Below, in pieces: positions 6,001 through 44,910 of a stretch of 58,287 nt of DNA (the first letter of the stretch is position 1; each line of letters starts with the position of its first letter). Origin of the DNA: Actinomycetota bacterium. Its GTDB lineage: Bacteria > Actinomycetota > Acidimicrobiia > IMCC26256 > VFJJ01. A model generated the notes under the pieces. It saw only the letters and a program-made list of their open reading frames with translations. It was not told where the DNA came from and searched no databases. The stretch covers positions 1 to 58,287 of the forward strand of contig VFJJ01000057.1 in the NCBI GenBank assembly GCA_009886115.1. Reading direction: 5' to 3'. The position numbers were made by a program, and so were the translations under genes.

Positions 6001-6250
6001 CGCCTGGAGCATGGACCAACCGCTCGGCGCCCAGCGCCTTGCGCAGCTGCGACACGTAACCCTGCAGCGTCTGGGCGGCCGAACGCGGCGGGCTCCCGTC
6101 CCACAGATCCTCGATGAGCCGCTCGGCGGGGACCGCACGGTTGGCGTCGACCAGCAGGCGAACCAGCAGGGCCCGGGGCTTGGCCGCGCCGAACACGACC
6201 TCCTCCCCGCCGGTGCGTACCACCAGTGGCCCCAGGATCCCGAACTCCAC
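2..6250 (-). CDS. Giant multidomain regulator, partial (runs off left edge): SARP winged-HTH + BTAD + class III adenylyl cyclase + STAND/AAA ATPase + TPR-like + second STAND/AAA ATPase + TPR-like
   Basis: Manual translation from GTG 6250 (GGAGG upstream): VEFGILGPL..KPRALLVRLL..IEDLW (SARP); EPLRERLWAHLITGLYRQGRQADAL..LGIDPSPEL (BTAD); TFVLSDIVGST..KARGEGDS..VHTGE..GDYFGRTVNRAAR (cyclase); GEPGIGKT..VLDDLQMAD..TDGNPFF; then GESGIGKT..VIDDLHWAD..TDGNPLF. No stop found. The plus-strand shadow ORFs from 8 to 6355 all share one frame, consistent with a single continuous ORF. Confidence 0.9.
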   Translation of the reverse strand, partial: MEFGILGPLVVRTGGEEVVFGAAKPRALLVRLLVDANRAVPAERLIEDLWDGSPPRSAAQTLQGYVSQLRKALGAERLVHAPGGYRLVVADGELDVGSFDGEVAQARRCLTAGDAAGAVAHGQRALLWWRGPALADAAGAGWALVEVARLGELRLVTVEALLEARLVLGEHAEVVAAAEAAVVEEPLRERLWAHLITGLYRQGRQADALRAYQRLRRHLADELGIDPSPELQDLEARVLRQQPELAWHPPAETGPRPTVLPTGVVTFVLSDIVGSTRLWETAPATMAETVARHEDLLRGTVEAHGGVLLKARGEGDSTFSVFQRASDAVAAAIDAQAAVAAEPWPAATPLDVRVAVHTGEAQERAGDYFGRTVNRAARLRAVARARVVTVSQATAELVIDDLPNGWHLIELGVQELRDIDRPERVYLLQRLGVRSTPDTTTTPDTTTTPDTTTTPDTTEAGRVPLPRLLVATPTGGFVGRDPERERIGTRFEQAAAGSAQIVLISGEPGIGKTSLAAEMARAAHGQGAIVVFGHCDEDMGVPYRPWIEALGHLVEHLRVDTLEGIGRRRLVDLSRLVPAVNDRVPGLAQPVRGDPDADRWSLFSAVSAVLGAACTGAPLVVVLDDLQMADKPTLLLLRHAVEQTGQPRLLVIGTYRDSDLAAGHPLTDLLASLRRDAFTERVALHGLADREVVALVEAMSGQDLEDEALRLVRAIHRETDGNPFFTEALLRHLAETGAVYLDEAGRWVPHADLDAAGLPDSIREVIGRRVARLGEPGQRVLQVASVIGREFDLATVAAAGGDEDEDGVLDALEAAEAAGLVQSVAPGRFVFAHGLVTTTIAAGLTPTRRARLHRRVAEAIEAVDPTGRRAAELARHWAATTTPDGAARAVGYARTAGDLAMRALAPDEAVRWYGQALELLAPSTGEPAEATSGDLLVRLGRAQRNAGDPVYRVTLLDAGRLARRIGDVGLLARATLANSRGFVDPAGGLSTDRVEMLEAALAAVDERDPPIRARLLGTLAAELRVGDDLERCRTLADEALAIARRLDAPALLAQILNLVAFAIWVPETLVERLEITAEAVELADRLGDPVLVHWSAMWRVHAAVESGDIEEAARWLEAMAAIAAETGLPALQWTNRTYRASLALLHGDTAEAERLSADAVDHAAGETTAQAGMFAQWHRTAIAWHAGRIAGELDLLAQVQLFDSFYDGSGTAVMALALSAAGRLEEAGLLLSTARREGISGQVGWLGRAVVWAEVCDRVGSPADAAALFDLMLPFRDQVASTGALWPGSVAHALGVLAAQQQRLDVADELFARAQTVNEKIRAPFFLARTRLAWARMLLERRGPGDRERAVALLEAARPLAREHGCAGVEREATELLDSRAAQPDPPPLPPRLTAATRSTFVGRDAELRVLSGLAGAAVAGQLRMALIAGESGIGKTTLAGAAARTAHASGAWVLHGRCDEDLRVPYRPFVEALTQLVEHLPDPAIDAIGDRRLAELARLVPSVTERRSSLPEPPATDPETERYLVMNAAVATFTEASTRAPVVFVIDDLHWADKATLVLLRHLLSSASGARLLVVATYRHTDLDGDTPLTDMLPVITTDPAVQHIKLAGLSPDDIARLTGADPALADALHRETDGNPLFAGELFRHLHETGTELRAGVLPDAVRGLVRRRVARLGADVQDVLVTAAAIGQEFDLELLARVLGRDADDVITTLERAEAAALIETIAAERFAFAHALIQHALYDELTATRRARTHRRIAETIEALGHGLSDARITELARHWAEAAVTPADLTLAAGHATRAGDRALEALAPDEAVRWYRQALQLHRRTPDPDEQLTCGLLLRLAQAQVQAGDRTFRQTRLDAAALATRLGDTDSLVQAALTDYQRGYPGDLDSRALLQAALDQVGSHDSPARARLLARLGYDGMFSNPDQAHADREHAVAIARRLDDLETLADVWSLGQPGTGGLGVEDPAEAEEMLALAERSGDPTAIFGAAHRGRYGAMLRSDVVLADRLYRRMTRIADEVGRPDMRWIVTYVAAERELLAGHLATAEQLTEQAYQLGRHLEEPGAEAIYVAGMQSLRWHQG
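4878..4945. repeat. 18-bp tandem repeat (about 3.8 copies) encoding a (TPDTTT)n linker
   Basis: GTCGTGTC(G/C)GGCGTGGTC repeated in frame between the cyclase and first ATPase domains. Confidence 0.9.
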
Positions 6251-6359
6251 GGCCACCTCCCCGGTCGCGCGGGCAGATGGTACGTCGTTACGGGCGAACG
6301 CGAGCGATCCTCCAGCACGGCGCGAGGACCGCTCAAGCGGCGAGGCGCACGCTGACGAC

Positions 6360-7418
6360 ATGCTCGAGATCAGAACTGCCACCACACCCGAAGAGAACGA
6401 AGCCGTCTACCGGTTCCGCTACTCCATCTACGTTCAGGAGATGGGCCGCTACCAGACCATCGCCGACCATACCCGCCGCCGGCTCGCCGATCCCGAGGAC
6501 GACCGCAGCTGGATCGTCTACGCCCACGACGGTACCAACGTGGTCGGGACGATCCGCCTGACCTGGGGTGGCGACGGATTTTCCGACCGCCAGATCAGCC
6601 AGTACGGACTCGGGCCGTTCCTGGAGGAGATCCCGGCCGCCGTGATGGCCGTCGGCGAGCGCGCCATGATCTGCCCGGCATGGCGGGGTGGAGATCTCTT
6701 CGCCGAGCTGGCCAACGGTACCCAGGAACTCATCACCCGCCACGACGTCCGTGTCGTGTTCGGGGCCTGCGAGCCGCACCTGCTGTCGCTGTACTCCCGG
6801 TACCAGCGCCCCTACGCCACGAGGAACATCAACAGCCCCGAGGCCGGTTACCTCATCCCCCTGATCGCCTTCCCCCGAGGACCCGAAGCGCTCACCGGCC
6901 TCGGAGACGGACCGGGAACCCCCCGCTGCATCCACGACGTCCTCGACCGCACCGGAACCGTGAGCAACGCCATGCTGTCCGAACCAGCGGCCTACCACCA
7001 GCAGCTGCACCGGACGCTCGAGCAGCTCCCCGGCTCGCTCTTCGACGGCCTCACCGACGACGAGCTCGACCGGGCCACGGTCCACAGCAGCATCATCGAC
7101 TGCGCCCCCGGCGACCGGATACTCAAGCAGGGCGGCGTCGCCCGCAACGTCTTCGTCGTCCTCGCCGGCACCCTCGAGGTCAGCGACCACGGGCACCCCA
7201 TCGGCGTCGTCCACCCCGGTGAGGTCTTCGGCGAGACCGCCTACCTGCTCCAGCAACCCCGCAGCTACGACGTTGACGTGACCAGCGACGGCACCCGCAT
7301 CCTCAACCTCAGCGAACGCACGCTGCGCACGCTGACCGAACACGATCCCGTCGTCGCGACCAAGCTCCTCGGCAACATCTCCAAGACCCTGTGCCGGCGA
7401 CTCAGCACCGCCGGCTGA
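6360..7418 (+). CDS. GNAT N-acyltransferase (N-acyl amino acid synthase FeeM/NasP-like) fused to a C-terminal cyclic-nucleotide-binding domain
   Basis: N-terminus EIRTATT..EAVYRFRYSIYVQEMG..DPED..VGTIRL; C-terminal phosphate-binding cassette GEVFGETAYLLQQPRSYDV. ATG at 6360 preferred over the track start at 6114, which overlaps the divergent gene. Confidence 0.8.
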   Translation: MLEIRTATTPEENEAVYRFRYSIYVQEMGRYQTIADHTRRRLADPEDDRSWIVYAHDGTNVVGTIRLTWGGDGFSDRQISQYGLGPFLEEIPAAVMAVGERAMICPAWRGGDLFAELANGTQELITRHDVRVVFGACEPHLLSLYSRYQRPYATRNINSPEAGYLIPLIAFPRGPEALTGLGDGPGTPRCIHDVLDRTGTVSNAMLSEPAAYHQQLHRTLEQLPGSLFDGLTDDELDRATVHSSIIDCAPGDRILKQGGVARNVFVVLAGTLEVSDHGHPIGVVHPGEVFGETAYLLQQPRSYDVDVTSDGTRILNLSERTLRTLTEHDPVVATKLLGNISKTLCRRLSTAG

Positions 7419-7719: not shown

Positions 7720-8556
7720 CTACGCCTCGGCCGTCCAGACGACGGGAAACTGGGCTGGGTCGAGCTCGAGCGAGCCCGGCGAGAACCAGCGGCTGTAGAC
7801 GGGGTGGCGCACCGTGGGATGGTGACGGGTGCCGAGCCGGCCGAGATGGCTGACGACGCTCCGACGTTGACGGTCGGGTCGCTCATTGGGTGGGCTGCCG
7901 TGGAACGTCCAACCGTGGTGGAACGCAGCCCCGCCGGCGGGAACCTCGACGGGCGCGAGCAGGCTGTCGACGTCGATGCCGGCGGGCGCCTGGGCCCGGG
8001 CCAGCGCCAGCCAGTCGTCGGGAGCGTGGAAGTTGTCGCCGGTAGCGCTCGGAGCCCACCGGTGCGATCCTCGGACGTACCAGATGGTGCCGGTGTCGGC
8101 CGCGGTGTCGTCGAGCGCCATCCAGCAGGTGGTCATGTTCACCGGGTCGAGCCAGCCGTTGTAGGAGTTGTCGCGATGAGCGCCGATGGCCAGCCCGAGT
8201 GGCGGTTTCCACAAGACGTTGTCCTGCAGGAGGACCATCCCCGGAGCGTTCTCGAGCAGCGCGGCGAACTCGCCCTGACGGGCCGAGCGGGTCGTGGCCG
8301 CCACCACCGGGTCAGCCTTCCATGCGTTGCAGAGCTGCAGCGTCCGCTGGCCCCCGTCGGTGGCGGCGGTGTGCGCGATCGCGTTTGCTGTCGCGTCGTT
8401 CACCTCGTCCGGTGCGACCCCCGTCGCCCAGTTCCGGGCGAACAGCGGCGCGAACCGGGCAACGACGGCGGCGACCTCGTCCTCGGGCAGCAGCCGCTCG
8501 ACGACGACGAAGCCGTCACGCCGGTACTGCTCCGCCTGCTGATCCGTGGGTTGCAT
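7720..8556 (-). CDS. Phytanoyl-CoA dioxygenase family Fe(II)/2-oxoglutarate oxygenase
   Basis: YRRDGFVVVERLL; WKPP..AHRD (HxD); TCWMALDD; GSHRW; FHHGWTFHGS..N..RR; GGAGG RBS. Confidence 0.88.
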   Translation of the reverse strand: MQPTDQQAEQYRRDGFVVVERLLPEDEVAAVVARFAPLFARNWATGVAPDEVNDATANAIAHTAATDGGQRTLQLCNAWKADPVVAATTRSARQGEFAALLENAPGMVLLQDNVLWKPPLGLAIGAHRDNSYNGWLDPVNMTTCWMALDDTAADTGTIWYVRGSHRWAPSATGDNFHAPDDWLALARAQAPAGIDVDSLLAPVEVPAGGAAFHHGWTFHGSPPNERPDRQRRSVVSHLGRLGTRHHPTVRHPVYSRWFSPGSLELDPAQFPVVWTAEA

Positions 8557-8657: not shown

Positions 8658-9992
8658 ATGACGCTGCCCGAGGGCGCCCGGTTCGTGGTGATCGGCGCCG
8701 GGGTGCACGGCCTGTCTACGGCCTGGCACCTGGCCAAGGAGCTCGAAGCCCGCGGCACGGGCTGGGGCGGCGACGTCGTCGTCATCGACAAGAACGGTGT
8801 GGGCGCCGGCGCTTCGGGGATCGCCTGCGGAGTGATTCGCAACAACTACTACCAGCCTGCGATGCGGCGGCTGATGGCGCATTCGGTCTCGGTCTGGGAG
8901 TCGGATCCCGAGGCGTTCAGCTACCACCCCGTGGGATACATGCAGATCTCGCCCGAGGCGATGCACGAGCAGGTGGGCCGCATCCACGCCGAGCAACAGG
9001 CGATCGGCTACGAGTCGACGTTCATCGAGGGTGGGCTCGAGAGCCGGCTCTACATGCAGGCCATGTTCCCCGACTGGCAGGCGGGCAACATCACCTCGGT
9101 GTTGCACGAGCGCCGCGGTGGCTACGCCAACAACATCGCATCGATGCTGGGGCTGGCGGCCAAGGCTCGGGCCGAGGGGGTGAGGATCTTCACCGGTACC
9201 AAGGTGACCGGCCTCACGGTCGAAGCCGGTGCGGTGACCGCCGTCGAGACCGATCAGGGGACGATCCGCTGTGAGCAGGTCGTCATCGGGGCCGGCCCCT
9301 GGGTACGAGATTTCTGGCGCATGCTCGACCTTCCCGAGACCGTGAACGTCCTCGGCCGCGACGGCCAGCGGTACGACCGGCCGATGTGGACCTACTGGTG
9401 CCTCGAAGAGGGCACCCTCGGGGTCGACCCGACATATCTCACCGATGCAAGCGGGAAGATGCCGCCGGTGATACACGTCGACACCGATGCGCCACTCATC
9501 GACGACGTCGACGGATCGGTGATCACCGACGGGCTGTGGGGCATCTACTTCAAGCCCGACTTCAACTTCGGCGGGGTGCAGGGCGGGGCGATGCCGTACA
9601 TCGTCGACAAACCGCTCGACCAGGTGGCGGTCGACCCCTACGGCACCGCCAGTCCCGACTTCGTGGTGGGGACGAGCTTCAAGCGCATGTGGACCTCGGC
9701 GCTGGCGCATTGCCTCAAGCGCTTCGAGGGCAAGGGTCATCTGTTCAAGGACGAGCCCTCGGGCGGGTTGGGCTGCTTCACCCCCGACAGCTTCCCGATG
9801 TTCGACACCTTCTGCCAGAACGCCTACGTGATCGCCGACTCGAACCACGGCTACAAGATGCTCGGCGTCGGCGCGCTGGTGGCCAAAGCGATGTTGGGCG
9901 AGCCTCAGGAGCTGCTGCATCCCTTCCGCTTCGCGCGCTATGCGGAAGGCGACCTTCACCCGGTCAGCAACTCCCCCTTCCCCTGGAGCTAG
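8658..9992 (+). CDS. FAD-dependent amine oxidoreductase (sarcosine oxidase beta / N-methylglutamate dehydrogenase A-like)
   Basis: VVIGAGVHGLSTAWHL Rossmann motif; GASGIACGVIR; FTPDSFP; NHGYKM. Confidence 0.82.
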   Translation: MTLPEGARFVVIGAGVHGLSTAWHLAKELEARGTGWGGDVVVIDKNGVGAGASGIACGVIRNNYYQPAMRRLMAHSVSVWESDPEAFSYHPVGYMQISPEAMHEQVGRIHAEQQAIGYESTFIEGGLESRLYMQAMFPDWQAGNITSVLHERRGGYANNIASMLGLAAKARAEGVRIFTGTKVTGLTVEAGAVTAVETDQGTIRCEQVVIGAGPWVRDFWRMLDLPETVNVLGRDGQRYDRPMWTYWCLEEGTLGVDPTYLTDASGKMPPVIHVDTDAPLIDDVDGSVITDGLWGIYFKPDFNFGGVQGGAMPYIVDKPLDQVAVDPYGTASPDFVVGTSFKRMWTSALAHCLKRFEGKGHLFKDEPSGGLGCFTPDSFPMFDTFCQNAYVIADSNHGYKMLGVGALVAKAMLGEPQELLHPFRFARYAEGDLHPVSNSPFPWS

Positions 9993-10007
9993 CGACCGAT
10001 TCTCGTC

Positions 10008-10056
10008 GTTCTGTGTGCAGAGAGCGTCGCCGGGCGACCGTTTCTGCACACAGAAC
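10008..10056. repeat. REP-like palindromic element, copy 1
   Basis: GTTCTGTGTGCAGA..GTCGCCGGGCGAC..TCTGCACACAGAAC; perfect 14-bp arms; intergenic. Confidence 0.85.
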
Positions 10057-10092
10057 CAGTTGATCCATCGACCGAGCACCAGGGAGATCGAC

Positions 10093-11505
10093 ATGGCCGA
10101 CAGGATGTGGGGAGCCGAGCCCTATTGGGGTCTTGGACCTGAGTGGGATCCCGATTGGGTGCTCACGGATCGCCAGAAGGAGCTCCGCGCCACGATCATC
10201 GAGCTGTGCGAACGCGAGATGCGCGCCAACGCCAAGCGTTTCGACGACACGCTCGAGTACCCGCGTCGCAACCTCGAGCTGCTCGGCGAGCACGGGTTCC
10301 TCGCTCTCACCGTCCCCGAGGAGTATGGCGGGTTGGGCGAGAATCACGTTGCCTACGCCATGGTGTGCGAGACGATCGCCCGCTATGGCTGCGCGTCGAC
10401 GGCGATGTGCTACGTGATGCACATGGGTGCGGTCAACGCCATCATGCTGCGCCCCACCGAGTTCCTGATCGACAAGTACATCCGGCCCCTCAACAGCGGC
10501 AAGATCGGCACGCTTTCGTACAGCGACCCCGAGACGGGCAGCCATTTCTGGTATCCCATCTCGTCGGGTGCCGAGCGCACCGACGGCGGGTTCAACGTGC
10601 GCAAGAAGGCGTCGTGGACCACCTCGGCGGGCTTCGCCGATTTCTACGTCGTGCAGACCACCAGCCCCGACTTCTCCTGGTACGACGACCTCTCGGTCTT
10701 CGTCGTCGACAAGGAGGACGCCCAGGCCCGGCCCGAGCTCTGGGACGCGCTGGGCTTGCGTGGCAACCAGTCGGGCTCGTTGAACATCGCGGGGTTCGTG
10801 CCCGAGAGCCAGATCATCGGGCCGGTCGGTGACGGTGCAGCATCGAACGACGAGTCGGTCGACCCATGGTTCCTCATCGGATCATCGTCGGTCTGGAACG
10901 GCATCGCCCTCGGTGCGATCGACATCACCAAGCGCCACACGACTCGTAAGAAGCACGTCGACGTGGGCCTGCGCGTGTGCGACTACCCGACGATCCAGGA
11001 CTATGTCGGCGAGTGCGTCATGGACACGAATGCCAAGCGCCTCTTCACCTACTCGGTCGCCCAGGGCTGCGATCGGGTGACCGACAACAACACGCGGGCC
11101 CTCGGGCCGGGCGAGTTCGCGCGGGCCGATCTGCTGCACTGGTTGTGGCAGATCAAGTTCGAGGCGGCCAAGAACGTCGCCAACGTGTGCGACAAGATGC
11201 TCCACGCCTGCGGCGGTTCCGGCTACAAGCGCGACATGGAGCTCGAGCGCTATCTCCGCGACGGCAAGGCCGGCTGGGTGATGGGCCCGACCAACGAGGT
11301 GCTGCGCCAGTTCGTGGGCAAGGCCGTGCTGCTCGGCTTCGAATCGCTCGACTACTGGAACCAGGCCGTCAACCAGCGCGCCATCGACAACGAGGTGAAG
11401 AAGCTCGACGCCAAGGCCAAGCGGGCGCTGGCGGAGCGGTTGCTCACAGAAGCCGACGACGATGAAGCCAAGGGGGCCAAGGGGACCGTGAAGTCGGCCT
11501 CCTGA
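10093..11505 (+). CDS. Acyl-CoA dehydrogenase-fold flavoprotein, non-canonical
   Basis: LTVPEEYGGLG, SYSDPETGS, KASWTTS, WDALGLRG, HACGGSGY, LERYLRD; GGGAG RBS. Confidence 0.85.
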   Translation: MADRMWGAEPYWGLGPEWDPDWVLTDRQKELRATIIELCEREMRANAKRFDDTLEYPRRNLELLGEHGFLALTVPEEYGGLGENHVAYAMVCETIARYGCASTAMCYVMHMGAVNAIMLRPTEFLIDKYIRPLNSGKIGTLSYSDPETGSHFWYPISSGAERTDGGFNVRKKASWTTSAGFADFYVVQTTSPDFSWYDDLSVFVVDKEDAQARPELWDALGLRGNQSGSLNIAGFVPESQIIGPVGDGAASNDESVDPWFLIGSSSVWNGIALGAIDITKRHTTRKKHVDVGLRVCDYPTIQDYVGECVMDTNAKRLFTYSVAQGCDRVTDNNTRALGPGEFARADLLHWLWQIKFEAAKNVANVCDKMLHACGGSGYKRDMELERYLRDGKAGWVMGPTNEVLRQFVGKAVLLGFESLDYWNQAVNQRAIDNEVKKLDAKAKRALAERLLTEADDDEAKGAKGTVKSAS

Positions 11506-11507
11506 TC

Positions 11508-13865
11508 GTGGACGGCGTGGACGGCGTGGAGCGCCCCGTGGATGGTGGCGGCCGGGACGATGAGCCGACTCCTCCTGTCACTGCCAACGGCACCGTGACG
11601 AGACCTCGCCTGCGCCAACCCGGCCTCGTCGTTGCGGAGTCGGGCGTCGAGCGATACCGGGTCCCGGGAGGCGGCTCGGTCGTGGTCGCGCTGGCGGGCG
11701 ACGACGTGATCGAGATCACCGACCCCGAGGGGGGTGGACGGTGTGAGCTGCGAGCCTTGGGGCGAGACGGCACCAACGGGCTCCGGGTGATCGGCGTCCA
11801 TCGCGAAGGCTCGGCGGATGGGGTGCAGCTCTTCGGCCGGTGGTCGCCAGCGGGAGCGGCGGTTCGGTTCGTCGCCAGTGACGATGTGGCGGTCACGATC
11901 GCGTCAGCGCCGCGGGTCATGGCCGTGGACGAGCACGATCCGCCATCCGAGCTTCGGGTCAGGGTCACCAGGGCGCGACCTGGCGCGAACCTCGACACGC
12001 CGGAGCTTCCACCGCCACTCGCGCTTCCTCTCCTCCTCGACCGCCGGGTCGATCGGGCGACGGCCACGGTCTACGAGGTGGCGGCTGGCCAATGGGTGCA
12101 GATCATCGACGTCGAGGGTCGCCAGTGCTCGGACCTCCTGGCGTTCAACGCCCGCCGGCTGCACGACGGGGTCGAGCGCGGCATCGATCCGACGACAACG
12201 CGCACGCTGGTCGGCTCGCTGTATCCCGGTCCGGGCCTGTATTCCAAGTACTACGACCAGGACATGCAGCCACTGCTCGAGGTGGTACGTGACACCGTCG
12301 GCCGGCACGACACCTTCGGCCTGGCGTGCACGGCCAAGTACTACGAGGACATGGGCTATCCCGGTCACGCCAACTGCTCCGAGAACTTCAACGCCTCGCT
12401 GGCGCCCTTCGGTATCGAGCCGAGGCGAGGGTGGCCGGCGGTCAACCTCTGGTACAACACGCTGATCGGGCCAGGCAACACGATCTCGCTCGACGAGCCC
12501 TGGAGCCGTCCCGGCGATTACGTGTTGCTGCGCGCTCTCACCGATCTGGTGGTCGGATCATCGGCCTGTCCCGACGACATCGACCCCACGAACGCCTGGA
12601 ATCCCACCGATGTCCACGTGCGGGTCTACGACTCCGGCCGCACCTTCACGAAGGCGATATCGCACCGCGTGACACCCGACGCCGATCCCATCCTCACCCA
12701 GGACACCGCGTTCGCCCCGTGCTGGAGCGAGCTCACCCGGCGAGTCACCGAGTACCGGGGCTTCTGGTTGCCGACGTCGTTCTCGAGTGAAGGTGCCGTC
12801 GCCGAGTACTGGGCATGTCGCGAGCGGGCGGTGGTCATCGACCTGTCGCCGCTGCGGAAGTTCGAGGTGACCGGTCCCGACGCCGAGCCCCTGCTACAGG
12901 CCGCGCTCACCCGCGATGTCCGCAAGCTCGCCACCGGCCAGGTCGTGTACTCGGCCATGTGCACCGAGACCGGCGGCATGCTCGACGACGTCACGGTGTT
13001 CCGGCTCGGCCCCGACCTGTTCAGGGTCGTCGGCGGCGACGAGCACGACGGCGTGTGGCTGCGCGAACTCGCGGAGAAGCTGGGCTACCGGGTCTGGGTG
13101 CGCCATTCGACGAGCCAGCTGCACAACCTGGCGGTCCAGGGGCCCCTGAGTCGGGCGATCGTACGGGAGATCGTCTGGACGCCACCGGGTCAGCCTTCGG
13201 TCGACGAGCTCAGGTGGTTCCGGTTCACGATCGGGCGCATCGGAGGCTTCAACGGCCCGGCGTTGCTCGTGTCACGCACCGGATACTCGGGCGAGCTGGG
13301 CTATGAGCTGTGGTGTCACCCGAATGACGCTCGTGCGGTGTGGGACGCCGTCTGGGAGGCCGGCCGTCCCCACGGCCTGTCGCCGCTGGGCCTCGATGCG
13401 CTCGACGTGCTGAGGATCGAGGCCGGCTTGGTGTTCGCCGGGTACGAGTTCGACGACCAGGTCGACCCCTACGAGGCCGGTATCGGCTTCGCCGTGGCGC
13501 TCGACAAGGGCCGTCCGCCCGACCAGCCCGACCATCCCGGCGACGACTTCGTGGGACGCGACGCGCTCCGGCGACGCCGAGCCCAACCCCAGCGGGTGCT
13601 GGTTGGGTTGGAGCTGGCCGGGAACGAGACGGCCGGCCACGGCGACCCGGTGCACCTCGGACGACCCCGGGTGGGCGTGGTCACCAGCGGGTGTCGCTCG
13701 CCGTGGCTGGGCACGAACATCGCTCTTGCTCGGGTCGCCGTCGAGGAGGCGGCGTTGGGCACCGAGCTCGAGATCGGCAAGATCGACGGCCACCAAAAGC
13801 GCATCCCCGCCCGGGTCGTGCTCTTCCCGTTCTACGACCCCGGCAAGACCAAGCCCCGCTCGTAG
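11508..13865 (+). CDS. tdm: Trimethylamine N-oxide demethylase-like (DUF1989 + GcvT aminomethyltransferase domains); start uncertain
   Basis: IIDVEGRQCSD, RHDTFGLACTAKYYEDMGYPGHANC, WYNT, EPWSRPGDY, SACPDDIDP; then GcvT motifs DLSPLRKFEVTGPDA, SRTGYSGELGYE, LRIEAG, PFYDP. Confidence 0.85.
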   Translation: MDGVDGVERPVDGGGRDDEPTPPVTANGTVTRPRLRQPGLVVAESGVERYRVPGGGSVVVALAGDDVIEITDPEGGGRCELRALGRDGTNGLRVIGVHREGSADGVQLFGRWSPAGAAVRFVASDDVAVTIASAPRVMAVDEHDPPSELRVRVTRARPGANLDTPELPPPLALPLLLDRRVDRATATVYEVAAGQWVQIIDVEGRQCSDLLAFNARRLHDGVERGIDPTTTRTLVGSLYPGPGLYSKYYDQDMQPLLEVVRDTVGRHDTFGLACTAKYYEDMGYPGHANCSENFNASLAPFGIEPRRGWPAVNLWYNTLIGPGNTISLDEPWSRPGDYVLLRALTDLVVGSSACPDDIDPTNAWNPTDVHVRVYDSGRTFTKAISHRVTPDADPILTQDTAFAPCWSELTRRVTEYRGFWLPTSFSSEGAVAEYWACRERAVVIDLSPLRKFEVTGPDAEPLLQAALTRDVRKLATGQVVYSAMCTETGGMLDDVTVFRLGPDLFRVVGGDEHDGVWLRELAEKLGYRVWVRHSTSQLHNLAVQGPLSRAIVREIVWTPPGQPSVDELRWFRFTIGRIGGFNGPALLVSRTGYSGELGYELWCHPNDARAVWDAVWEAGRPHGLSPLGLDALDVLRIEAGLVFAGYEFDDQVDPYEAGIGFAVALDKGRPPDQPDHPGDDFVGRDALRRRRAQPQRVLVGLELAGNETAGHGDPVHLGRPRVGVVTSGCRSPWLGTNIALARVAVEEAALGTELEIGKIDGHQKRIPARVVLFPFYDPGKTKPRS

Positions 13866-13886
13866 CCCCCAGCGCCCCACCGCCCG

Positions 13887-13935
13887 GTTCTGTGTGCAGA
13901 AATCGTCGCCTGGCGATGATTTCTGCACAAATTTC
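13887..13935. repeat. REP-like palindromic element, copy 2
   Basis: GTTCTGTGTGCAGAAATCGTCGCCTGGCGATGATTTCTGCACAAATTTC between convergent genes. Confidence 0.85.
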
Positions 13936-13956
13936 GGGGGGGGCGGCTCCGGGTGG

Positions 13957-14382
13957 CTACGAGTCGGGGCTGGGGACGATGAGGACGGGGCAGGGGGCGT
14001 GGTGCACGACACGCTGGCTGACGCTCCCGAGCACGGCGCCGGCCCACGCGCCGTGGCCGCGGGATCCCACGACGATGGCGTCGGCCCGCTCGGCCTTGGC
14101 CGTCTCGCAGATCTCCCAGGCAGCCCCGCGCGCTCCCGGCCGGGCGAACAGGGTGCCGGCGACCTTGCCCCCCGCGTCCTCGATCCTCGTCTTGACGGTG
14201 TCGAGCAGCGAGCGGGCAGCCGCCTCCGATTCCTCATGGGCGGCGCCTCGGGAGGGCCACACATCGAGGACGTGCAACACGACGAGAGCCCCTCCCGTCG
14301 AGGCCGACAGCTTCGCCGCGGTCTCGATCACTGCGTCATTGGCGGTTGAACCATCGACCCCGACCACGATGCGCTCGAACAT
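13957..14382 (-). CDS. Universal stress protein
   Basis: IVVGVDGS; IVVGSRGHG..LGSVSQRVVHHAPCPVLIV. Confidence 0.93.
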   Translation of the reverse strand: MFERIVVGVDGSTANDAVIETAAKLSASTGGALVVLHVLDVWPSRGAAHEESEAAARSLLDTVKTRIEDAGGKVAGTLFARPGARGAAWEICETAKAERADAIVVGSRGHGAWAGAVLGSVSQRVVHHAPCPVLIVPSPDS

Positions 14383-14502
14383 GAGATCCTCCCTGATGGC
14401 GCGTGCGTTGCCACGAGCATGCGCCGGGCACGGACGTGCCGGACAGGGCCGGAGGGCACCCGTCGCCGAGTCGTTCGGCCCGGCGACACGGGTCGAACAG
14501 GC

Positions 14503-15036
14503 TCAGGTCGTGTAGCGGCTGCGGTGGAACACCAGGGGCTCGTTGTCGGCGCTGTCGACTGCTTCCACGCGTCCGACGAGGATCACGTGGTCGCCCCCGT
14601 GGAACCAGTGCTCGAGACGGCACTCCAGCGTCGCGTGGGTACCGGTGAGGACGGGGATGCCGGCGTCGGTCAGACGATGCTCGATGCCGGCGAGCTTGTC
14701 GTCGCTCGGACGGGCGAAATGACCCGACAGTCGTTGCTGATCGGCAGCGAGGATGTTCACCACGAACGCCCGTCCGATGGCGAAGCCGGCCATGCTGGGA
14801 GCGCGCCGGTTCAGGCAGATCAGCACGAGTGGGGGATCGAGCGACACCGACGTGAACGAGTTGGCGGTGAACGCCAGCAGGCGGTCGTCGGCTCCCCGGG
14901 TGGTGACGACGGTGACACCGGTGGCGAAGGACCCGACCGCCCGCTTGAACGCCGCGGTGTCGACCGCTGCAGCCTCGATGGCAGCTGCATGCGCGTCGTC
15001 GACCTCGGCGGGCGCCGGTCCCTCTGGGAAGCTCAC
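14503..15036 (-). CDS. Flavin reductase (HpaC/DszD-like)
   Basis: FATGVTVVT, TANSFTSVSLDPPLV, GGDHVILVG, PLVFHR. Confidence 0.92.
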   Translation of the reverse strand: MSFPEGPAPAEVDDAHAAAIEAAAVDTAAFKRAVGSFATGVTVVTTRGADDRLLAFTANSFTSVSLDPPLVLICLNRRAPSMAGFAIGRAFVVNILAADQQRLSGHFARPSDDKLAGIEHRLTDAGIPVLTGTHATLECRLEHWFHGGDHVILVGRVEAVDSADNEPLVFHRSRYTT

Positions 15037-15054
15037 GCGCGGGCCTCCCCCTCC

Positions 15055-15105
15055 CACATCTGCGCGGAAATGTGCGCCCGGTGAGCAATTCCGCGCAAAT
15101 TTCGG
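15055..15105. repeat. REP-like palindromic element, divergent copy 3
   Basis: TGCGCGGAA..TTCCGCGCA followed by AATTTCGGGG; same length and 3' end as copy 2. Confidence 0.7.
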
Positions 15106-15121
15106 GGAGGTGGGGTCGGGG

Positions 15122-16068
15122 TCATGGCGCCGGTCGGGGCTGGACGTGGCCGAAACCGAAGCGGCCCTTGATGCACAGGTTGCCGCTCGTGATGTCGTGA
15201 TCGGCCGGTGAAGTGACCTTGACGATGGTGTTGTCCTGCACGTGAAGCGTGAGGTTGCAGCCCACGCCGCAGTAGGGGCAGATCGTGTCGGTGGCGGTCT
15301 GGCGCGACGCGTCCCAAGTCCCGGCCAACCGCATGTCGAACTCGATGCTGGGCATCAGGGCGCCGGTGGGGCACACGGCGATGCAGTTCCCGCAATACAC
15401 GCAGGCCGAGTCGGGCAGGCCCAGGGCGAACTCGGTCGAGATGCGAGCGTCGAACCCCCGCCCGGCCACGCCGATGGCGAAGGTGTTCTGCCACTGCTCG
15501 CCGCACGCATCGACGCACTGGTAGCACAGAATGCACTTCGCGTAGTCGCGGACGTACAGGTCGTTGTCGACCGTGGCCGGTTGGTGGACGGTTTCCGCGA
15601 TGGCGTGATCGCCGGCGGGCGGCAGGTGATGATGACCGGCCTGGGCGGCGTCGCGTACCCCCGCATCGGAGAACGACGGTCGCCCGAACCGGCCGGGGTC
15701 GGCGCGGTACTCGTGGTTCCAACGCTCGACGTTGGCCGTGGTCGAGAGGTCGACCGACGAGCCGAGCAACTCGAGCACCATGCGGCGACTGTGCTTCACG
15801 CGATCGGACGCCGTGTGCACGACCATCCCCGGCTCCACGGTGCGCGAGCACGACGGCACCAGCACCCGCGCGCCCTCCACCTCCACCATGCACACCCGAC
15901 AGGCGTTCTTCGGCGTGATCGTGGGCCCGAAGCACAGCGTGGGTATCTCGTGCCCTTCCCGTCGGCAGGCGTCGAGGATCGTCGACCCCTCGGGAACCTT
16001 CACCGTCTCGCCGTCGACGGTGAGCTCGACCTTTCGGACGGGTGCTCGCAGGGCCACCGGTGTGCTGC

Positions 16069-16072
<4 letters not shown>
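15122..16072 (-). CDS. Formate dehydrogenase Fe-S subunit (2Fe-2S + 2x4Fe-4S + molybdopterin-oxidoreductase Fe4S4 domain)
   Basis: IPTLC..ACRVC..SC; CILCYQCVDAC; CVYCGNCIAVCP; TICPYCGVGC..LCIKG; GTGA overlap with upstream gene. Confidence 0.9.
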
Positions 16073-17936
<1,864 letters not shown>

Positions 17937-17937
<1 letters not shown>

Positions 17938-19859
17938 CAGGCTCCTGCGGTCGCGAGCTTGTCGATGCGGACGGCCGAGGCCTTGAACTCGGCGGTCCCC
18001 GACTTGGGATCCCATGCCTCGATGGTGAGCTGGTTGGTGTCGACGTCGTCGGGGAAGTGCATCGTCATGAACACCAGTCCCGGGCGCAAGCCGGGATCGA
18101 TCCGGGTCGGGACCTCGAGCACGCCCCGCCGCGAGCTGACGCGGACGGTCTCGTCTGGGACCAGGCCGAGACGATGTGCGTCCTCGGGCGAGACGTCGAT
18201 CGTCTCGCCCATCCGCATGGGCGACGACATCGCACCCGACTGCACCCCGGTGTTGTACGAGTCGAGGCGTCGCCCCGTGGTGAGGCGCAGCGGGAAGTCG
18301 TCGGAGAGCTCGTCGACGGGCGAAGAGTGAGCCACGACCGAGAACGGAGCCCGGCGACCGAGCGTTGCCGGATCGTCGGACCACAGGCGCCCGTGCAGAT
18401 AGCTCGGTTCGAGCTCGGTCTCGGACGGGCACGGCCACTGGATGCCACCCAGGTCTTCCAAGCGGCGATAGCTCATCCCGGTGTGCATCGGTGACAGTGA
18501 GCGCAGCTCGTCCCAGATCGCCTCGGCCGAGTCGTACCGCCAGTCGTGACCGAGCCGCCGAGCGAGGTCGAGGATGATGTCGATGTCGTCGCGTGCTCCC
18601 TCGGGAGCGTCGATGGCCTTGCGGACCCGCTGCACGCGCCGCTCGGAGTTGGTGACCGTGCCCTCGGTCTCGCACCAGGCGGCCGAGGCCGGGAGCACGA
18701 CGTGGGCCAGCTGCGCGGTGCGGGTGAGGAAGATGTCCTGGACCACGAGGTGCTCGAGGCCCGAGAGGTGGTGGATGGCCTGCTCGACGTCGGCCTCGGA
18801 CTGGGCCGGGTTCTCGCCGATCACATAGAGGGCGGTGAGGTCGCCCCGCCCCATGGCCTCGAACATCTGGGTGAGATGCCAGCCGTACCGGGGCACGATC
18901 GTCGTGCTCCAGGCCGCGTCGAACTTCGCCCGGGCTTCGGCATCGAGGATGTCCTGGAAGCCGGGGAGGCGGTTGGGGATGGCGCCCATGTCGCCGCCGC
19001 CCTGCACGTTGTTCTGTCCCCGCAAGGGATTGAGGCCCGACCCGTACCGTCCGACGTGTCCGGTGAGCAGCGCGAGGTTGATGAGCGAGAGCACGTTGTC
19101 GACGGCGTCGTGGTGCTCGGTGATGCCGAGCGTCCAGCAGATCTGGGCCCGATCGGCCCGGGCATAGGCCTGTGCCAGCTCGCGAATCACCTCGGCCGGT
19201 ACGCCGGTGACGGCCGCGCCGCGTTCGAGCGTCCATTCCTCGACCGACGCCGCGTACTCGGCGAACCCGGTCGTGGCCCGCTCGATGAACACGCGGTTGT
19301 GCAGCCCGGCATGGATGATCTCGCGTGCCACCGTGTTCGACAGGGCGATGTCGGTGCCGACGTGCAGCCCCAACCAGCCATCGGCCCACTGGGCGCTGCT
19401 CGTGCGGCGCGGATCGATGCAGTAGAGCGAAGCGCCGGCGTTCACCGCCGTGAGCACGTGGTGGAAGAAGATGGGATGGGTCTCGCGCGCGTTCGAGCCC
19501 CAGAGGACGATCACGTCGGTGTCCTCGACCTCGCGGTATGACGAGGTGCCACCGCCTGCTCCGAAGACCGTCGCCAGACCGACGACGCTGGGAGCGTGTC
19601 AGGTGCGGTTGCAGGAGTCGATGTTGTTGGTGCCGATGGCGACCCGGACGAACTTCTGGGCGACGAAGTTCATCTCGTTGGTGGCCTTCGAGCACGAGAA
19701 GACGCCCACCGAGCTCGGACCTCGAGTGTCACGAGCGCCGCGGAACCCGGCCGCGGCACGATCGAGCGCCTCGTCCCACGACGCGGGGCGTAGCTGACCT
19801 CCATCGCGGACGAGCGGTGTGGTGAGCCGTTGGTACGGCTGAGGAGCACGGCGCGGCAC
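17937..19859 (-). CDS. fdhF: Selenocysteine-containing Mo/W-bisPGD formate dehydrogenase catalytic subunit (about 640 aa, UGA at 19599-19601)
   Basis: Track ORFs 19599..19859 and 17937..19514 are in the same frame, joined by NNIDSCNRT-U-HAPSVVGL; LRGQNNVQG carries the catalytic Arg; AGGAGG RBS. Confidence 0.92.
19565..19601 (-). promoter_or_regulatory. Bacterial SECIS element
   Basis: UGA CAC GCU CCC AG CGUCGUC GGUCU GGCGACG: a stem starting 11 nt after the UGA with a GGUCU apex, as in fdhF-type SECIS. Confidence 0.8.
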
Positions 19860-19997: not shown

Positions 19998-21095
19998 TCA
20001 CCCCGAGCGTTCGCACATTCCGTAGCCCGGTTCGCCGTCGCACTCGAAGCTGGCGAGCGACTGGCTCATCACCCGCGCCGCATCGGGTCGGAGGCCGAGT
20101 GCCCCGGCGGCCGCGGCCGCTGCCCCCATGGGCCTCGATCCCAGCTCGCCCAGACCGCCGAGACCCATCGACGTCCACACGGTTCGGTCGTCGCGTCCCG
20201 TGAGCCGGGTGAGGCCGAGGCTGTCGCAGGCCACTTCGACCACGAAGTCGGCCCGGGGATCGTCGCGGTTCACAGGCGGTGCGTAGATGATGCGGTTGGG
20301 GTGCACGGTCTCACCGTCCCACACGTAGGCCTCGCTGAACGCGTAGCCGCCCGAGGCGCCGTGGCGCATGTGACACTGCAGCCCAACGGCCCGTCCGCTC
20401 TCAGGGAACACGGCGCCGATCCACGTGTGGGCCTTGAAGCCTTCGAGGATCCGGACCCCACGCACGTGCCCCCGAAGGCCGTGCGCGTTGAACTCGTGGG
20501 CCGTGCGGTCGACCACGATGGTTCCCGTCGCCGAGATCGCCTGGTCGTAGCGAAACGCCGATCGCGACATGCCCGCCGTGAGACGACCGGCGATCCAGAG
20601 CCCGGCTGGCCCCTTCATCGCCTCGGCGGCCTCGGGCAGCAGCGAACCCTGCAGCCAGATGGGAGCCACTGTCGTGGCTTCGACATCGAGCGAGACGCGG
20701 ACCGTCGCCCCGTGGCTGACATCGCCCGTGGCGTGCTCGGCGTCGCTGCTCGTGGTGAGCGGGAAGTCGCGCAGCTGATAGGCCCAGCGCCGAAAGGGCT
20801 CGATGCAGTGGTAGCGCACGTGTGCCGTCTCGGGGGCGTCGGACCGGAGGATGGGCGCAGGATCGGGGCCTCCGGAGAGGATGCGCCCGTCGGGCAGGAA
20901 CACCACAGCGCGGCCCTGGGCCTCGCCGTCGTGCGCATGGATGCGCAACTCCACGCCGAGGTTGCGAGCCTTGTCGTGCAACCACACCACGAAGGTGTCG
21001 ATGACGGCCGGGTCGTCGGGGTGCGCCGCGGTGAGCGCATGGTCGTCGGTGGGCTCTCGCCCACTGGCGAACGGATCACTCGAGGGAGGCGCCAT
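19998..21095 (-). CDS. Conserved hypothetical protein (beta-barrel, DUF7064/7065-like, tentative)
   Basis: AGGAG RBS; coding-like composition; motifs CIEPFRRW, RYDQ..GTI, GLRGHVRGVR resemble the protein at 28336. Confidence 0.65.
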   Translation of the reverse strand: MAPPSSDPFASGREPTDDHALTAAHPDDPAVIDTFVVWLHDKARNLGVELRIHAHDGEAQGRAVVFLPDGRILSGGPDPAPILRSDAPETAHVRYHCIEPFRRWAYQLRDFPLTTSSDAEHATGDVSHGATVRVSLDVEATTVAPIWLQGSLLPEAAEAMKGPAGLWIAGRLTAGMSRSAFRYDQAISATGTIVVDRTAHEFNAHGLRGHVRGVRILEGFKAHTWIGAVFPESGRAVGLQCHMRHGASGGYAFSEAYVWDGETVHPNRIIYAPPVNRDDPRADFVVEVACDSLGLTRLTGRDDRTVWTSMGLGGLGELGSRPMGAAAAAAGALGLRPDAARVMSQSLASFECDGEPGYGMCERSG

Positions 21096-21963
21096 GTGGA
21101 TCTCCTGTCGCTTGGTGCCCAGTGACCGGGTCACCCGTCGCGCTCGGTCGACCCGGTGCGATCGGTGCGTTCGACGGGAGCAGGCGGAGATCCTCGGTCC
21201 ACACCGGCGAGATCAGCACCCGGAGCACCTCGTCGGCCACCTCGGCCGGCGTCATCTCGCTGGCGCGGGCCTGCCCTCGTCCGGCTCGGGCCTCGAAGAA
21301 GCCGGCGAGCGCAGCCGGGTCCCAGGCCGAGGCGAACTCGGTGCCGCTGGTGGGCCCGACGACGATGCGCAGGAAGGCGATCGTCGGGTGCTCGTTGCGC
21401 CAACCTCGGATCATCGCGTCGAGCGCCGCCTTGCTCGACCCGTACGGGACCAGAGCCGGGCGGGGATCTTCACTCGACACCGACGAGAGGTACGCGGCCC
21501 GTCCGTGACTCTCGGCGAGATGGTCGATGGCCGCTCGGGTCACGAGCGCGGCACCCACGACGTTGGTCTCGAGCACGGTTCGCCAAACGTCACCGTCGGT
21601 CGTCCTCAACGTGGACAAGGTCGAGACCCCGGTCGCGTACACGAGGGCGTCGAGGCCGCCGAGCGCGTTCAGTGCTTCGTCGACGAGACGGTCGCAGTCG
21701 TCGTCGCGGCGCACATCGGCGGTGATCGCGGTGATCGCAGGCGCGGGGAAGGGTGTCGCTTCCGGTCGATCGTCGGGAGCCCGAGCACGGGCACTCGCGA
21801 CTGCCGCTGCTTGCGCGCCAAGGGACTGCAGGCGATCGGTCCGCCGACCTGCGGCAGCCACGTGAGCACCCCGGGCCGCGGCGGCCACGGCGATGGCCCG
21901 TCCGATGCCCGACGACGCCCCCACGACCAGCAACCGCACGCCCGCCAGACCCGCCGTGCTCAC
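21076..21963 (-). CDS. SDR oxidoreductase
   Basis: VGASSGIG; YGSSK. Confidence 0.88.
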   Translation of the reverse strand: MSTAGLAGVRLLVVGASSGIGRAIAVAAAARGAHVAAAGRRTDRLQSLGAQAAAVASARARAPDDRPEATPFPAPAITAITADVRRDDDCDRLVDEALNALGGLDALVYATGVSTLSTLRTTDGDVWRTVLETNVVGAALVTRAAIDHLAESHGRAAYLSSVSSEDPRPALVPYGSSKAALDAMIRGWRNEHPTIAFLRIVVGPTSGTEFASAWDPAALAGFFEARAGRGQARASEMTPAEVADEVLRVLISPVWTEDLRLLPSNAPIAPGRPSATGDPVTGHQATGDPHGASLE

Positions 21964-39305: not shown

Positions 39306-39360
39306 CGGGCGCCGCCAGGCTGTCGCGACACGTTTCGATCCCCCGGCTCCCGTATCCCTT

Positions 39361-39373
39361 TTCAGGATACTCT
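39361..39373. promoter_or_regulatory. Candidate operator TTCAGGATACTCT
   Basis: One of four similar intergenic sites. Confidence 0.55.
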
Positions 39374-44852: not shown

Positions 44853-44910
44853 CTTCGCTTCGGAGGGCCGGGCTGGGGTCCGCGGTCGCGACCCTGCCGG
44901 TGGGGGAGTC

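Follow-up and report, generated by a model that had tools for sequence, protein, structure and literature searches.

Methylated amines constitute a sizeable flux of carbon and nitrogen and are precursors of aerosols, and their oxidation by bacteria is tracked by the genes tmm, tdm, dmm and gmaS, which have been defined in Proteobacteria. In the textbook pathway, trimethylamine (TMA) is oxidised to trimethylamine N-oxide (TMAO) by Tmm, a single-component monooxygenase of the FMO type (class B) that uses NADPH, TMAO is demethylated to dimethylamine (DMA) by Tdm, and DMA is converted to methylamine (MMA) and a C1 unit by DmmDABC. Here we analyse contig VFJJ01000057.1 of an uncultured, soil-type actinobacterium (58,287 nucleotides, hereafter the window), in which a tdm gene stands directly downstream of a gene for a flavoprotein with the acyl-CoA dehydrogenase (ACAD) fold, and close to genes for a flavin reductase and for an FAD-dependent amine oxidoreductase of the DAO family. 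The gene string was called from the G+C content at third codon positions together with Pfam matches. We think it moderately probable that the ACAD-fold protein and the reductase together would oxidise TMA to TMAO, that Tdm would take TMAO to DMA, and that the DAO-family enzyme would take DMA to MMA.

The TMAO demethylase

The closest described relatives of the Tdm in the window are the enzymes of Methylocella silvestris and Paracoccus sp. DMF (PDB 9Q59, 9Q5L and 9Q5A). According to the structural study, the Paracoccus enzyme has a single Zn site and no Fe site; the Zn is held by three cysteines, C285, C301 and C365, the substrate or product is contacted by D220, F327 and D367, and the residues of the folate site are R480, F582, F672 and K782 (PMC13619132). 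The gene in the window is a 785-aa open reading frame (ORF) at 11508-13865 on the plus strand, with a start codon that is uncertain between 11508 and 11595, and its product has the same three-domain architecture in a single chain, with DUF1989 at residues 181-348, GCV_T at 409-662 and GCV_T_C at 696-777 (Pfam). It scores 1134.8 bits against the NCBIfam equivalog NF053776, a narrow margin over the cut-off of 1100, and covers profile positions 94-762 of 763. Residues 104-785 match the Paracoccus cryo-EM chains 9q59, 9q5l and 9q5a at E 1.1e-246, and the protein is 57% identical to the homologue of M. silvestris TVC.

An earlier note on this DNA had recognised a Tdm-like protein from the spacing of a motif, and the motif is indeed found in this ORF as H267-x2-F270-x3-C274-x12-H287-x2-C290, with a third cysteine, C354, exactly 64 residues after C290. 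The two aromatic residues in between come in the opposite order to the one noted, W315 before Y316. In an alignment of the window Tdm with 74 full-length homologues, H267, F270, C274, H287, C290 and C354 are invariant in all 75 sequences, and the motif is therefore not a chance pattern. The three Zn ligands of the Paracoccus enzyme align to C274, C290 and C354 with an offset of 11, which bears out the Zn site named in the note; the Fe site that it also named finds no counterpart in the Paracoccus structure, which shows Zn only (PMC13619132), and the two histidines of the motif are invariant nonetheless. The contacts D220, F327 and D367 align to D209, Y316 and D356. Both aspartates are invariant or nearly so among the 75 sequences, and the equivalents of the folate-site residues, R469, F571, F661 and K780, are kept in 73 to 75 of them. 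The change from F327 in Paracoccus to Y316 here is a conservative one, and tyrosine stands at this position in 56 of the 75 and phenylalanine in 19.

By family membership the ORF at 11508-13865 encodes a genuine Tdm. It is predicted to be a Zn enzyme that converts TMAO to DMA and formaldehyde, the C1 unit being passed to tetrahydrofolate by way of the GcvT domain. One could also imagine another pair of tertiary amine and N-oxide, for instance that of a larger dimethylalkylamine, as the substrates of this Tdm-like enzyme and of its ACAD-fold partner, and the score barely above the family cut-off, the tyrosine at a substrate contact and the uncharacterised partner enzyme would all agree with that. 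However, the remaining residues of the Zn, substrate and folate sites are invariant, tyrosine is the usual residue at position 316, also in some Tdm proteins that adjoin a canonical Tmm, the Tdm sequences do not separate by partner type in a phylogenetic tree, and the surrounding genes are those of C1-amine metabolism, and we consider such a substrate improbable. The Tdm itself is an ordinary one, and its presence chiefly adds an uncultured lineage of actinobacteria to the range of a known enzyme. What differs from the known cases are the partner genes, which there are tmm and dmmDABC, and here code for the ACAD-fold protein, the flavin reductase and the DAO-family enzyme.

Canonical enzymes in the genome

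The window belongs to a draft genome (G000) of 5.45 Mb in 224 contigs, with 69.5% G+C, 95.6% completeness and 3.0% contamination. As the earlier note had said, there is no tmm, dmm or gmaS in the window. The best tblastn match in the whole genome to the FMO-type Tmm of M. silvestris has 24% identity over 222 aa, and none reaches E<=1e-60. Queries for DmmA and DmmC taken from related loci gave no tblastn match in the genome, and PF11927, the family of DmmC (HODM alpha), likewise had no match, as compared with matches in four of four control genomes. Judging from these searches, the canonical enzymes for the steps from TMA to TMAO and from DMA to MMA are missing from the genome.

The lower part of the pathway, for which the earlier note had pointed to gmaS, mgs, fhs and folD, was found outside the window. 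One contig (C135) has genes for a regulator and an amino-acid-type permease, together with sox/mgd-like genes, fhs, gmaS and mgsABC, and folD lies on another (C107). With gmaS, mgsABC, the mgd/sox-like genes, fhs and folD all present, the pathway is complete at its methylamine end. The sox/mgd-fhs-gmaS-mgsABC cluster is directly preceded (C135:10419-15000) by another gene like that of glutamine synthetase (GS) and another mgsABC-like set, which share 33-55% identity with the first set and suggest a paralogous module of the gamma-glutamyl/N-methylglutamate type for another amine.

Neighbours of tdm in other bacteria

In Methylocella silvestris TVC (L037) the gene order is dmmD-tmm-tdm, and in Xanthobacter sp. 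VNH20 (L063) dmmD is followed by ACAD-reductase-tdm-dmmA-dmmB-dmmC, both according to Pfam annotation of the loci. The ACAD/reductase pair of Xanthobacter hence occupies the very slot adjoining tdm that is held by tmm in Methylocella. A scan of one genome per species gave 574 stretches that encode Tdm relatives, and the analysis was continued with the 80 best, each with flanks of up to 10 kb. When these were searched by tblastn with the proteins of the window, the ACAD-fold protein was found in 55 of the 80 at 59-87% identity, as compared with 56-71% for Tdm, and in each of these 55 loci, from at least six phyla, its gene stands directly upstream of tdm on the same strand. The projected gap between the two genes is -96 to +285 nt, and widens to about 626 nt in the two loci with the reductase gene in between, L063 and L075. 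A first pass without identity thresholds found the flavin reductase in 40 of the 80 loci, DAO in 43, a PhyH-family oxygenase in 17 and parts of a formate dehydrogenase in one; with thresholds the counts for DAO and for the reductase are both 39. A homologue of the flavin reductase was found in 30 of the 35 ACAD-positive loci whose flanks are 5 kb or longer on each side.

The ACAD-fold gene and tmm are largely mutually exclusive. Within 10 kb of tdm, 51 loci hold the former alone, 15 hold tmm alone, four have both and ten have neither. Between DAO and DmmC the corresponding numbers are 39 with DAO alone, seven with DmmC alone, none with both and 34 with neither. Counted as pairs of candidates for the first and third steps, ACAD and DAO occur together in 29 loci, Tmm and Dmm in six, and ACAD and Dmm in one, and six further loci combine Tmm and DAO with Tdm, having neither ACAD nor Dmm. 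The arrangement itself varies: a Thermoleophilia metagenome-assembled genome (MAG) has gmaS-mgsABC and, further on, ACAD-tdm-PhyH followed by reductase, permease, IclR and DAO, and a second actinobacterial MAG has soxBAG-fhs-ACAD-tdm followed by reductase, IclR, DAO and permease. A FastTree phylogeny of the 75 Tdm sequences follows taxonomy, and along it the label of the partner, ACAD or Tmm, changes at least six times; the partners have therefore been swapped repeatedly around an unchanged Tdm.

A candidate trimethylamine monooxygenase

The ACAD fold is common to the group D two-component flavin monooxygenases, such as DszC (4DOY), TdsC (5XDC) and the enzyme of 5Z8T, and the nitrososynthases and isobutylamine N-hydroxylase belong to the same group. 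ACAD-fold two-component oxygenases like DszC and the nitrososynthases typically oxygenate N or S atoms, and not methyl C-H bonds. The 470-aa product of the gene upstream of tdm (10093-11505, plus strand; Pfam Acyl-CoA_dh_N/M/1/2) has this fold, as confirmed by fold search, it likewise appears to be without the catalytic Glu of the dehydrogenases, and it too has a flavin reductase of the HpaC type as its partner; oxygenation of a heteroatom would, if so, be matching chemistry. The likeness is a distant one, with only about 19-24% identity to 4DOY, 5XDC and 5Z8T, and the family is set apart from the group D structures by an internal insert and by a conserved helical extension, about 45 residues long, at the C-terminus. 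The protein is covered by no curated family, and reaches no NCBIfam cut-off, the best being Rv1679_FadE16 with 206 bits against a cut-off of 600. In a large protein collection 1498 relatives were found at E<=1e-20 among the 8000 that were scored, and the top 120, which are 78-95% identical, bear generic names only. The best Foldseek match of the AlphaFold model is 5z8t, a 'flavin-containing monooxygenase', with ordinary ACADs, DszC and TdsC close behind.

Pfam and public annotations name the protein an acyl-CoA dehydrogenase, and the solved structures closest to it by sequence are ACADs, at about 25% identity. These names would make it an ordinary dehydrogenase that stands beside tdm by coincidence, which we find hardly credible. 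Three solved ACADs have in the alignment 'YEGT', which we take to be the site of the catalytic Glu, where this protein has 'MGPT', with Gly in place of Glu, and the stretch 'GWVMGPTNEV' is invariant in seven members of the family from four phyla. The residue that serves dehydrogenases at this position is thus apparently lacking, although a base could sit elsewhere, as in isovaleryl-CoA dehydrogenase. The same-strand adjacency to tdm in 55 of 55 loci from at least six phyla, the accompanying flavin reductase and the strict co-occurrence with tdm in sampled genomes, which is described below, also argue against a coincidence. The window's own ACADs were considered as a control for the catalytic Glu, and were replaced by the solved ACADs since they too lack it at that position.

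The flavin reductase of 177 aa is encoded at 14503-15036 on the minus strand (Pfam Flavin_Reduct, E 1.7e-38) and is an NAD(P)H:flavin reductase of the HpaC/C1 type. Its best NCBIfam matches are reductase components of two-component monooxygenases, all under the cut-off. By analogy with the group D enzymes, we regard the ACAD-fold protein as a candidate for the oxygenase component of a two-component TMA monooxygenase, and the flavin reductase as the candidate reductase component that would serve it. The reaction proposed is that of Tmm, TMA to TMAO, and yet the ACAD-fold protein is unrelated to Tmm in both sequence and fold, and the pair would be a two-component system using free reduced flavin. 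These two genes are the most informative ones in the neighbourhood, and both had been left out of the earlier note.

A few other observations were made on this family. The name 'putative dibenzothiophene monooxygenase' in the ESM Atlas was treated as a lead only, an ACAD-like paralogue on contig C92 was set aside as it has no amine context, and the over-long matches P0097 and P0103 turned out to be ORFs that had been called too long, without any additional domain. In five proteins from metagenomes (P0245-P0249; 852-1286 aa), the ACAD-fold family and DUF1989/GCV_T are joined in one chain; each of them is a single sequence from a metagenome assembly, and they are either natural fusions of ACAD and Tdm or artefacts of indels or frameshifts in adjacent overlapping genes. 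As such they hint that the oxygenase and the demethylase may work as one complex.

A candidate enzyme for dimethylamine

DmmDABC, the dimethylamine monooxygenase, is a haem-dependent oxidative N-demethylase (PMC5520151). The enzyme that we propose for the same step, from DMA to MMA and a C1 unit, is FAD-dependent and unrelated to the haem/PAS protein DmmC. It is encoded here by a single gene (8658-9992, plus strand, 444 aa; Pfam DAO, E 2.1e-35), and a separate GcvT-like gene adjoins it in some tdm-negative genomes. An FAD amine oxidoreductase had been placed beside tdm in the earlier note; the gene is there, but it does not adjoin tdm, since that of the ACAD-fold protein intervenes. The enzyme is distantly related to soxB, ThiO and DMGDH. 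Only positions 2-216 of the 353 in the profile align, and every NCBIfam score is far under the cut-off. Its FAD-binding N-terminal half aligns at E 1e-12 to 1e-8 with the family of sarcosine oxidase beta, dimethylglycine oxidase and MgdA (1Y56, 2GAG and 1PJ5), which are oxidative N-demethylases. The soxB/mgdA that the same genome encodes on C135 is a different protein, with about 30% identity over 214 residues. We regard it as a candidate dimethylamine dehydrogenase or oxidase.

Co-occurrence and the proposed pathway

When entire genomes are considered, and not only the surroundings of tdm, Tmm is found in none of five genomes with the ACAD cluster (Xanthobacter, two Actinomycetota, Acidobacteriota and Latescibacterota), as compared with five of five controls, and DmmC (PF11927) in none of five genomes with the DAO cluster, as compared with four of four controls. 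We also took an even sample of 400 Actinomycetota genomes, which with G000 gives 401, and applied thresholds of E<=1e-150 for Tdm, 1e-100 for the ACAD-fold protein and for DAO, and 1e-60 for Tmm. Tdm is present in ten of the 401. The ACAD-fold gene is found in exactly these ten, adjacent to tdm each time, and in none of the 391 tdm-negative genomes, and no FMO-type Tmm occurs in any of the ten. At E<=1e-150 the sole carrier of Tmm in the sample, G480, gives no match to Tdm, an absence that is uncertain as 3682 bases of G480 were not covered.

DAO is present in 22 of the 401 genomes, that is in all ten tdm-positive ones and in 12 of the 391 others, a count that includes the unpublished genome G396. 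The surroundings of DAO were inspected in nine of the tdm-negative genomes. It adjoins sox/mgd-like genes in four of them (L090, L091, L093 and L094), in some cases together with fhs and a GcvT-like gene. Its neighbour in L092 is a GcvT-like gene alone, those in L096 and L098 are gmaS-mgsABC, L097 has fhs only, and in L095 no methylamine-type neighbour is present. As the ACAD-fold gene occurs only with tdm, and DAO also occurs without it beside methylamine genes, the former therefore belongs to the Tdm module and the latter to a module for DMA or MMA.

These data bear on the order of the steps. The ACAD-fold oxygenase and its reductase could instead act after Tdm and convert DMA to methylamine, in which case TMAO and not TMA would be taken up, and DAO would have its place elsewhere in the methylamine/N-methylglutamate branch. 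Strict adjacency to tdm suits a step before Tdm as well as one after it, and four Pseudonocardia loci (L014, L043, L054 and L066), which carry tmm of the FMO type together with the ACAD-fold gene and tdm and have no nearby flavin reductase, would be natural if the ACAD-fold enzyme is no substitute for Tmm. Because these loci hold both, ACAD and Tmm are not strictly alternatives. They are the sole cases of apparent redundancy between the two. Against a position after Tdm stands Xanthobacter, where a complete dmmDABC lies beside ACAD-reductase-tdm and no Tmm is found anywhere in the genome, and so do the six loci with Tmm, Tdm and DAO that are without both ACAD and Dmm. That DAO occurs without tdm, in 12 of 391 genomes and beside methylamine genes, and the ACAD-fold gene in none of these 391, is the pattern to be expected if DAO, and not the ACAD-fold enzyme, handles DMA. 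The preference of ACAD-fold two-component oxygenases for N or S over methyl C-H bonds points the same way, and we think it rather unlikely that the ACAD-fold enzyme acts after Tdm.

In the pathway that we prefer, with the ACAD-fold enzyme before Tdm, this protein would receive reduced flavin from the reductase and N-oxygenate TMA to TMAO by way of a flavin hydroperoxide, and would so stand in for Tmm. Tdm would convert TMAO to DMA and methylene-tetrahydrofolate, and the DAO-type FAD enzyme would oxidatively demethylate DMA to methylamine in the place of DmmDABC. Methylamine would then enter the GmaS/N-methylglutamate pathway (GmaS, Mgs and Mgd, encoded on C135), and the C1 units would pass through FolD and Fhs to formate, which the neighbouring formate dehydrogenase could oxidise to CO2; the NADH formed could also feed the flavin reductase.

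Several points weigh against this pathway. The assignment of Tdm rests on its family membership, and those of the other enzymes on gene context. The 80 loci were picked by similarity to the window Tdm and are mostly from Actinomycetota, and are hence related and not independent. No flavin reductase was found in five of the 35 well-flanked ACAD-positive loci, 26 ACAD-positive loci are without DAO within 10 kb, and the four Pseudonocardia loci have a Tmm already. The AlphaFold model of the ACAD-fold protein is of moderate quality (pLDDT 68.4, pTM 0.73), and a fold search cannot separate an oxygenase from a dehydrogenase, the ordinary ACADs lying within a factor of about 100 of 5z8t. Some annotation pipelines call the relatives of the DAO enzyme 'methylglutamate dehydrogenase subunit A'. 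Lastly, the formate dehydrogenase adjoins tdm only in this genus, with parts of it in one of the 80 related loci.

The value of the locus lies in the combination of missing canonical enzymes and tightly linked, uncharacterised flavoenzymes, which makes a variant TMA pathway directly testable. We hypothesize, with chances that seem to us about evenly balanced, that soil Actinomycetota, Acidobacteriota, Latescibacterota, Gemmatimonadota and some Hyphomicrobiales oxidise TMA with a first enzyme (ACAD-fold, two-component) and a third enzyme (DAO) that are unrelated to the textbook ones. Full-text searches, which did not cover subscription journals, found no description of an ACAD-fold or DAO-type partner of Tdm, and a term search in PMC5520151 gave no occurrence of the words Actinobacteria, Gram-positive or alternative. 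If the hypothesis is true, surveys that use tmm and dmm as markers would miss most terrestrial TMA oxidisers, and amine N-oxygenases of a new class, as well as a new flavoenzyme for DMA oxidation, could be tested directly with two or three clonable genes. The textbook pathway would, if the ACAD-fold gene is that of a TMA monooxygenase, be the minority arrangement.

The formate dehydrogenase

FdsABG is the NAD-dependent formate dehydrogenase (FDH) of Cupriavidus and Rhodobacter. The FDH in the window has in common with it a Mo-bisPGD catalytic domain, an Fe-S chain and diaphorase modules like NuoE and NuoF. It differs from FdsABG in that alpha is encoded in two parts, with the break after Molybdop_Fe4S4 and the Fe-S half downstream of the diaphorase gene, in that NuoE and NuoF are fused, and in that the active site would hold a selenocysteine and not a cysteine. 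All genes are on the minus strand, in the order Mo half, NuoE-NuoF fusion and Fe-S half. The molybdopterin catalytic subunit (17937-19859; Pfam Molybdopterin and Molydop_binding) is without N-terminal Fe-S domains; the fusion of 622 aa, the NAD(H)/FMN diaphorase of the FDH (16069-17937; Pfam 2Fe-2S_thioredx, Complex1_51K, SLBB and NADH_4Fe-4S), matches both nuoF_fam and nuoE_fam of NCBIfam; and the Fe-S part of alpha (15122-16072; Pfam Fer2_4, Fer4_7 and Molybdop_Fe4S4) has one 2Fe-2S and two 4Fe-4S domains besides Molybdop_Fe4S4. Each of the two later starts overlaps the preceding stop, namely ATG at 17937 with the stop of the gene upstream and GTG at 16072 with that of the NuoE-NuoF gene. 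The sister species G006 shares this order (L086, G006:C270), and the split is therefore not an assembly error. Against TIGR01591, the Fdh-alpha profile, the catalytic gene scores 644.3 bits over positions 52-672, with a cut-off of 666.25, and the Fe-S gene covers positions 1-49 and adds 49.9 bits; the rough sum exceeds the cut-off, but for a protein that is split.

An in-frame TGA (19599-19601) interrupts the catalytic gene in the context NRT-U-HAPSV, with Molybdopterin profile positions 1-80 before it and 100-352, followed by Molydop_binding, after it. In a Thermoleophilaceae locus (L067), a homologue with 70% identity is interrupted by a stop at the equivalent position, and the genome encodes selA, selB and tRNA-Sec on contig C73 and selD on C57. 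A 7-bp hairpin with the loop GGUCU, a possible SECIS element, starts 14 nt past the UGA (-10.5 kcal/mol). The wider 67-nt fold is no better than shuffled sequences (z -0.28), free-energy z-scores being uninformative at 70% G+C. Ordinary gene callers would split the gene at the UGA into pieces of 97 and 553 aa. As read from its sequence, this is a split, NuoEF-linked and selenocysteine-containing FDH.

The earlier note had seen an NAD-linked FDH operon that converges on tdm, and had inferred that methyl groups are oxidised to CO2 for energy. On this view the locus would be a single functional island: Tdm, the amine oxidoreductase and the FDH would burn the methyl groups together, and no further enzymes from the window would be called for. 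The FDH genes do converge on tdm, with the flavin reductase and a universal stress protein gene standing between, they have a diaphorase module of the NADH type, and the genes of this island are located as the note had stated, its limits of 8658 and 19859 coinciding exactly with the starts of the DAO and FDH genes. The flavin reductase appears to be co-oriented with the FDH genes and lies only 85 nt downstream of them, the whole arrangement is kept in the sister species G006, and fhs and folD are at hand in the genome for making formate. Oxidation of the methyl groups to CO2 is hence plausible in itself, but the FDH is not a conserved partner of tdm, as it accompanies tdm in G006 and, in parts, in just one of the 80 related loci. 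A single island would moreover leave out the partners that are conserved, the ACAD-fold gene and the flavin reductase, and it would not explain how TMAO is produced and DMA used without Tmm and Dmm. We consider it possible but doubtful as an account of the locus.

The host

The earlier note had taken the host for a probable member of the Acidimicrobiia, and marker genes were compared in this respect. The RpoB sequence shares 73-74% identity with those of Streptosporangiaceae, Pseudonocardia and Euzebyaceae, and 61-67% with that of a Thermoleophilia genome. Comparison with an Ilumatobacteraceae MAG was not feasible for RpoB, as rpoB is missing from that assembly, and GyrB was used instead; it is 66% identical to the one of that MAG, as compared with 56-63% for four other actinobacterial MAGs. 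By these markers the contig is actinobacterial and not proteobacterial, as the note had held, and membership of the Acidimicrobiia would agree with the data and is weakly indicated. The best named matches of Tdm (71%) and of the ACAD-fold protein (87%) are also from the Ilumatobacteraceae MAG, and Tdm groups with its sequence in the tree. In GTDB, the family of G000 comprises two species and the order 264 genomes, and Tdm was found solely in G000 and G006; the Tdm of the Ilumatobacteraceae MAG was not found among the 264 genomes of the order.

Other genes in the window

Divergent from the DAO gene lies that of an Fe(II)/2-oxoglutarate oxygenase of the PhyH family (7720-8556, minus strand; Pfam PhyH, E 3.7e-25), which starts with an ATG at 8556 with a ribosome-binding site (RBS) and is syntenic in G006. 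Its residues H127-x-D129, H213/H214/H219 and R231 are invariant in 18 sequences, and all of the 17 tdm loci with PhyH are also ACAD-positive. It looks like an active accessory enzyme, possibly a demethylase or hydroxylase. The universal stress protein gene between tdm and the flavin reductase (Usp; 13957-14382, minus strand; Pfam Usp, E 1.2e-31) has a start with an RBS, is the last in the minus-strand string and is likewise syntenic in G006.

Just upstream of the FDH genes there is a 378-aa ORF (20001-21134, minus strand) with a strong coding bias in G+C, which has no Pfam match and is without paralogues in the genome; in the ESM Atlas the nearest clusters are those of Actinomycetota DUF7064/DUF7065 (DUF2804-like) proteins, which is a lead only. 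Two large transporter fusions lie at 36486-39371 (minus strand) and 44119-47127 (plus strand), one of which consists of two BPD_transp_2 permease domains and ABC_tran and the other of MFS_1 and ABC_tran. An ORF of more than 2100 aa at 2-6406 on the minus strand, which runs off the end of the window, combines Trans_reg_C, BTAD, a guanylate/adenylate cyclase domain and two AAA/STAND NTPase modules.

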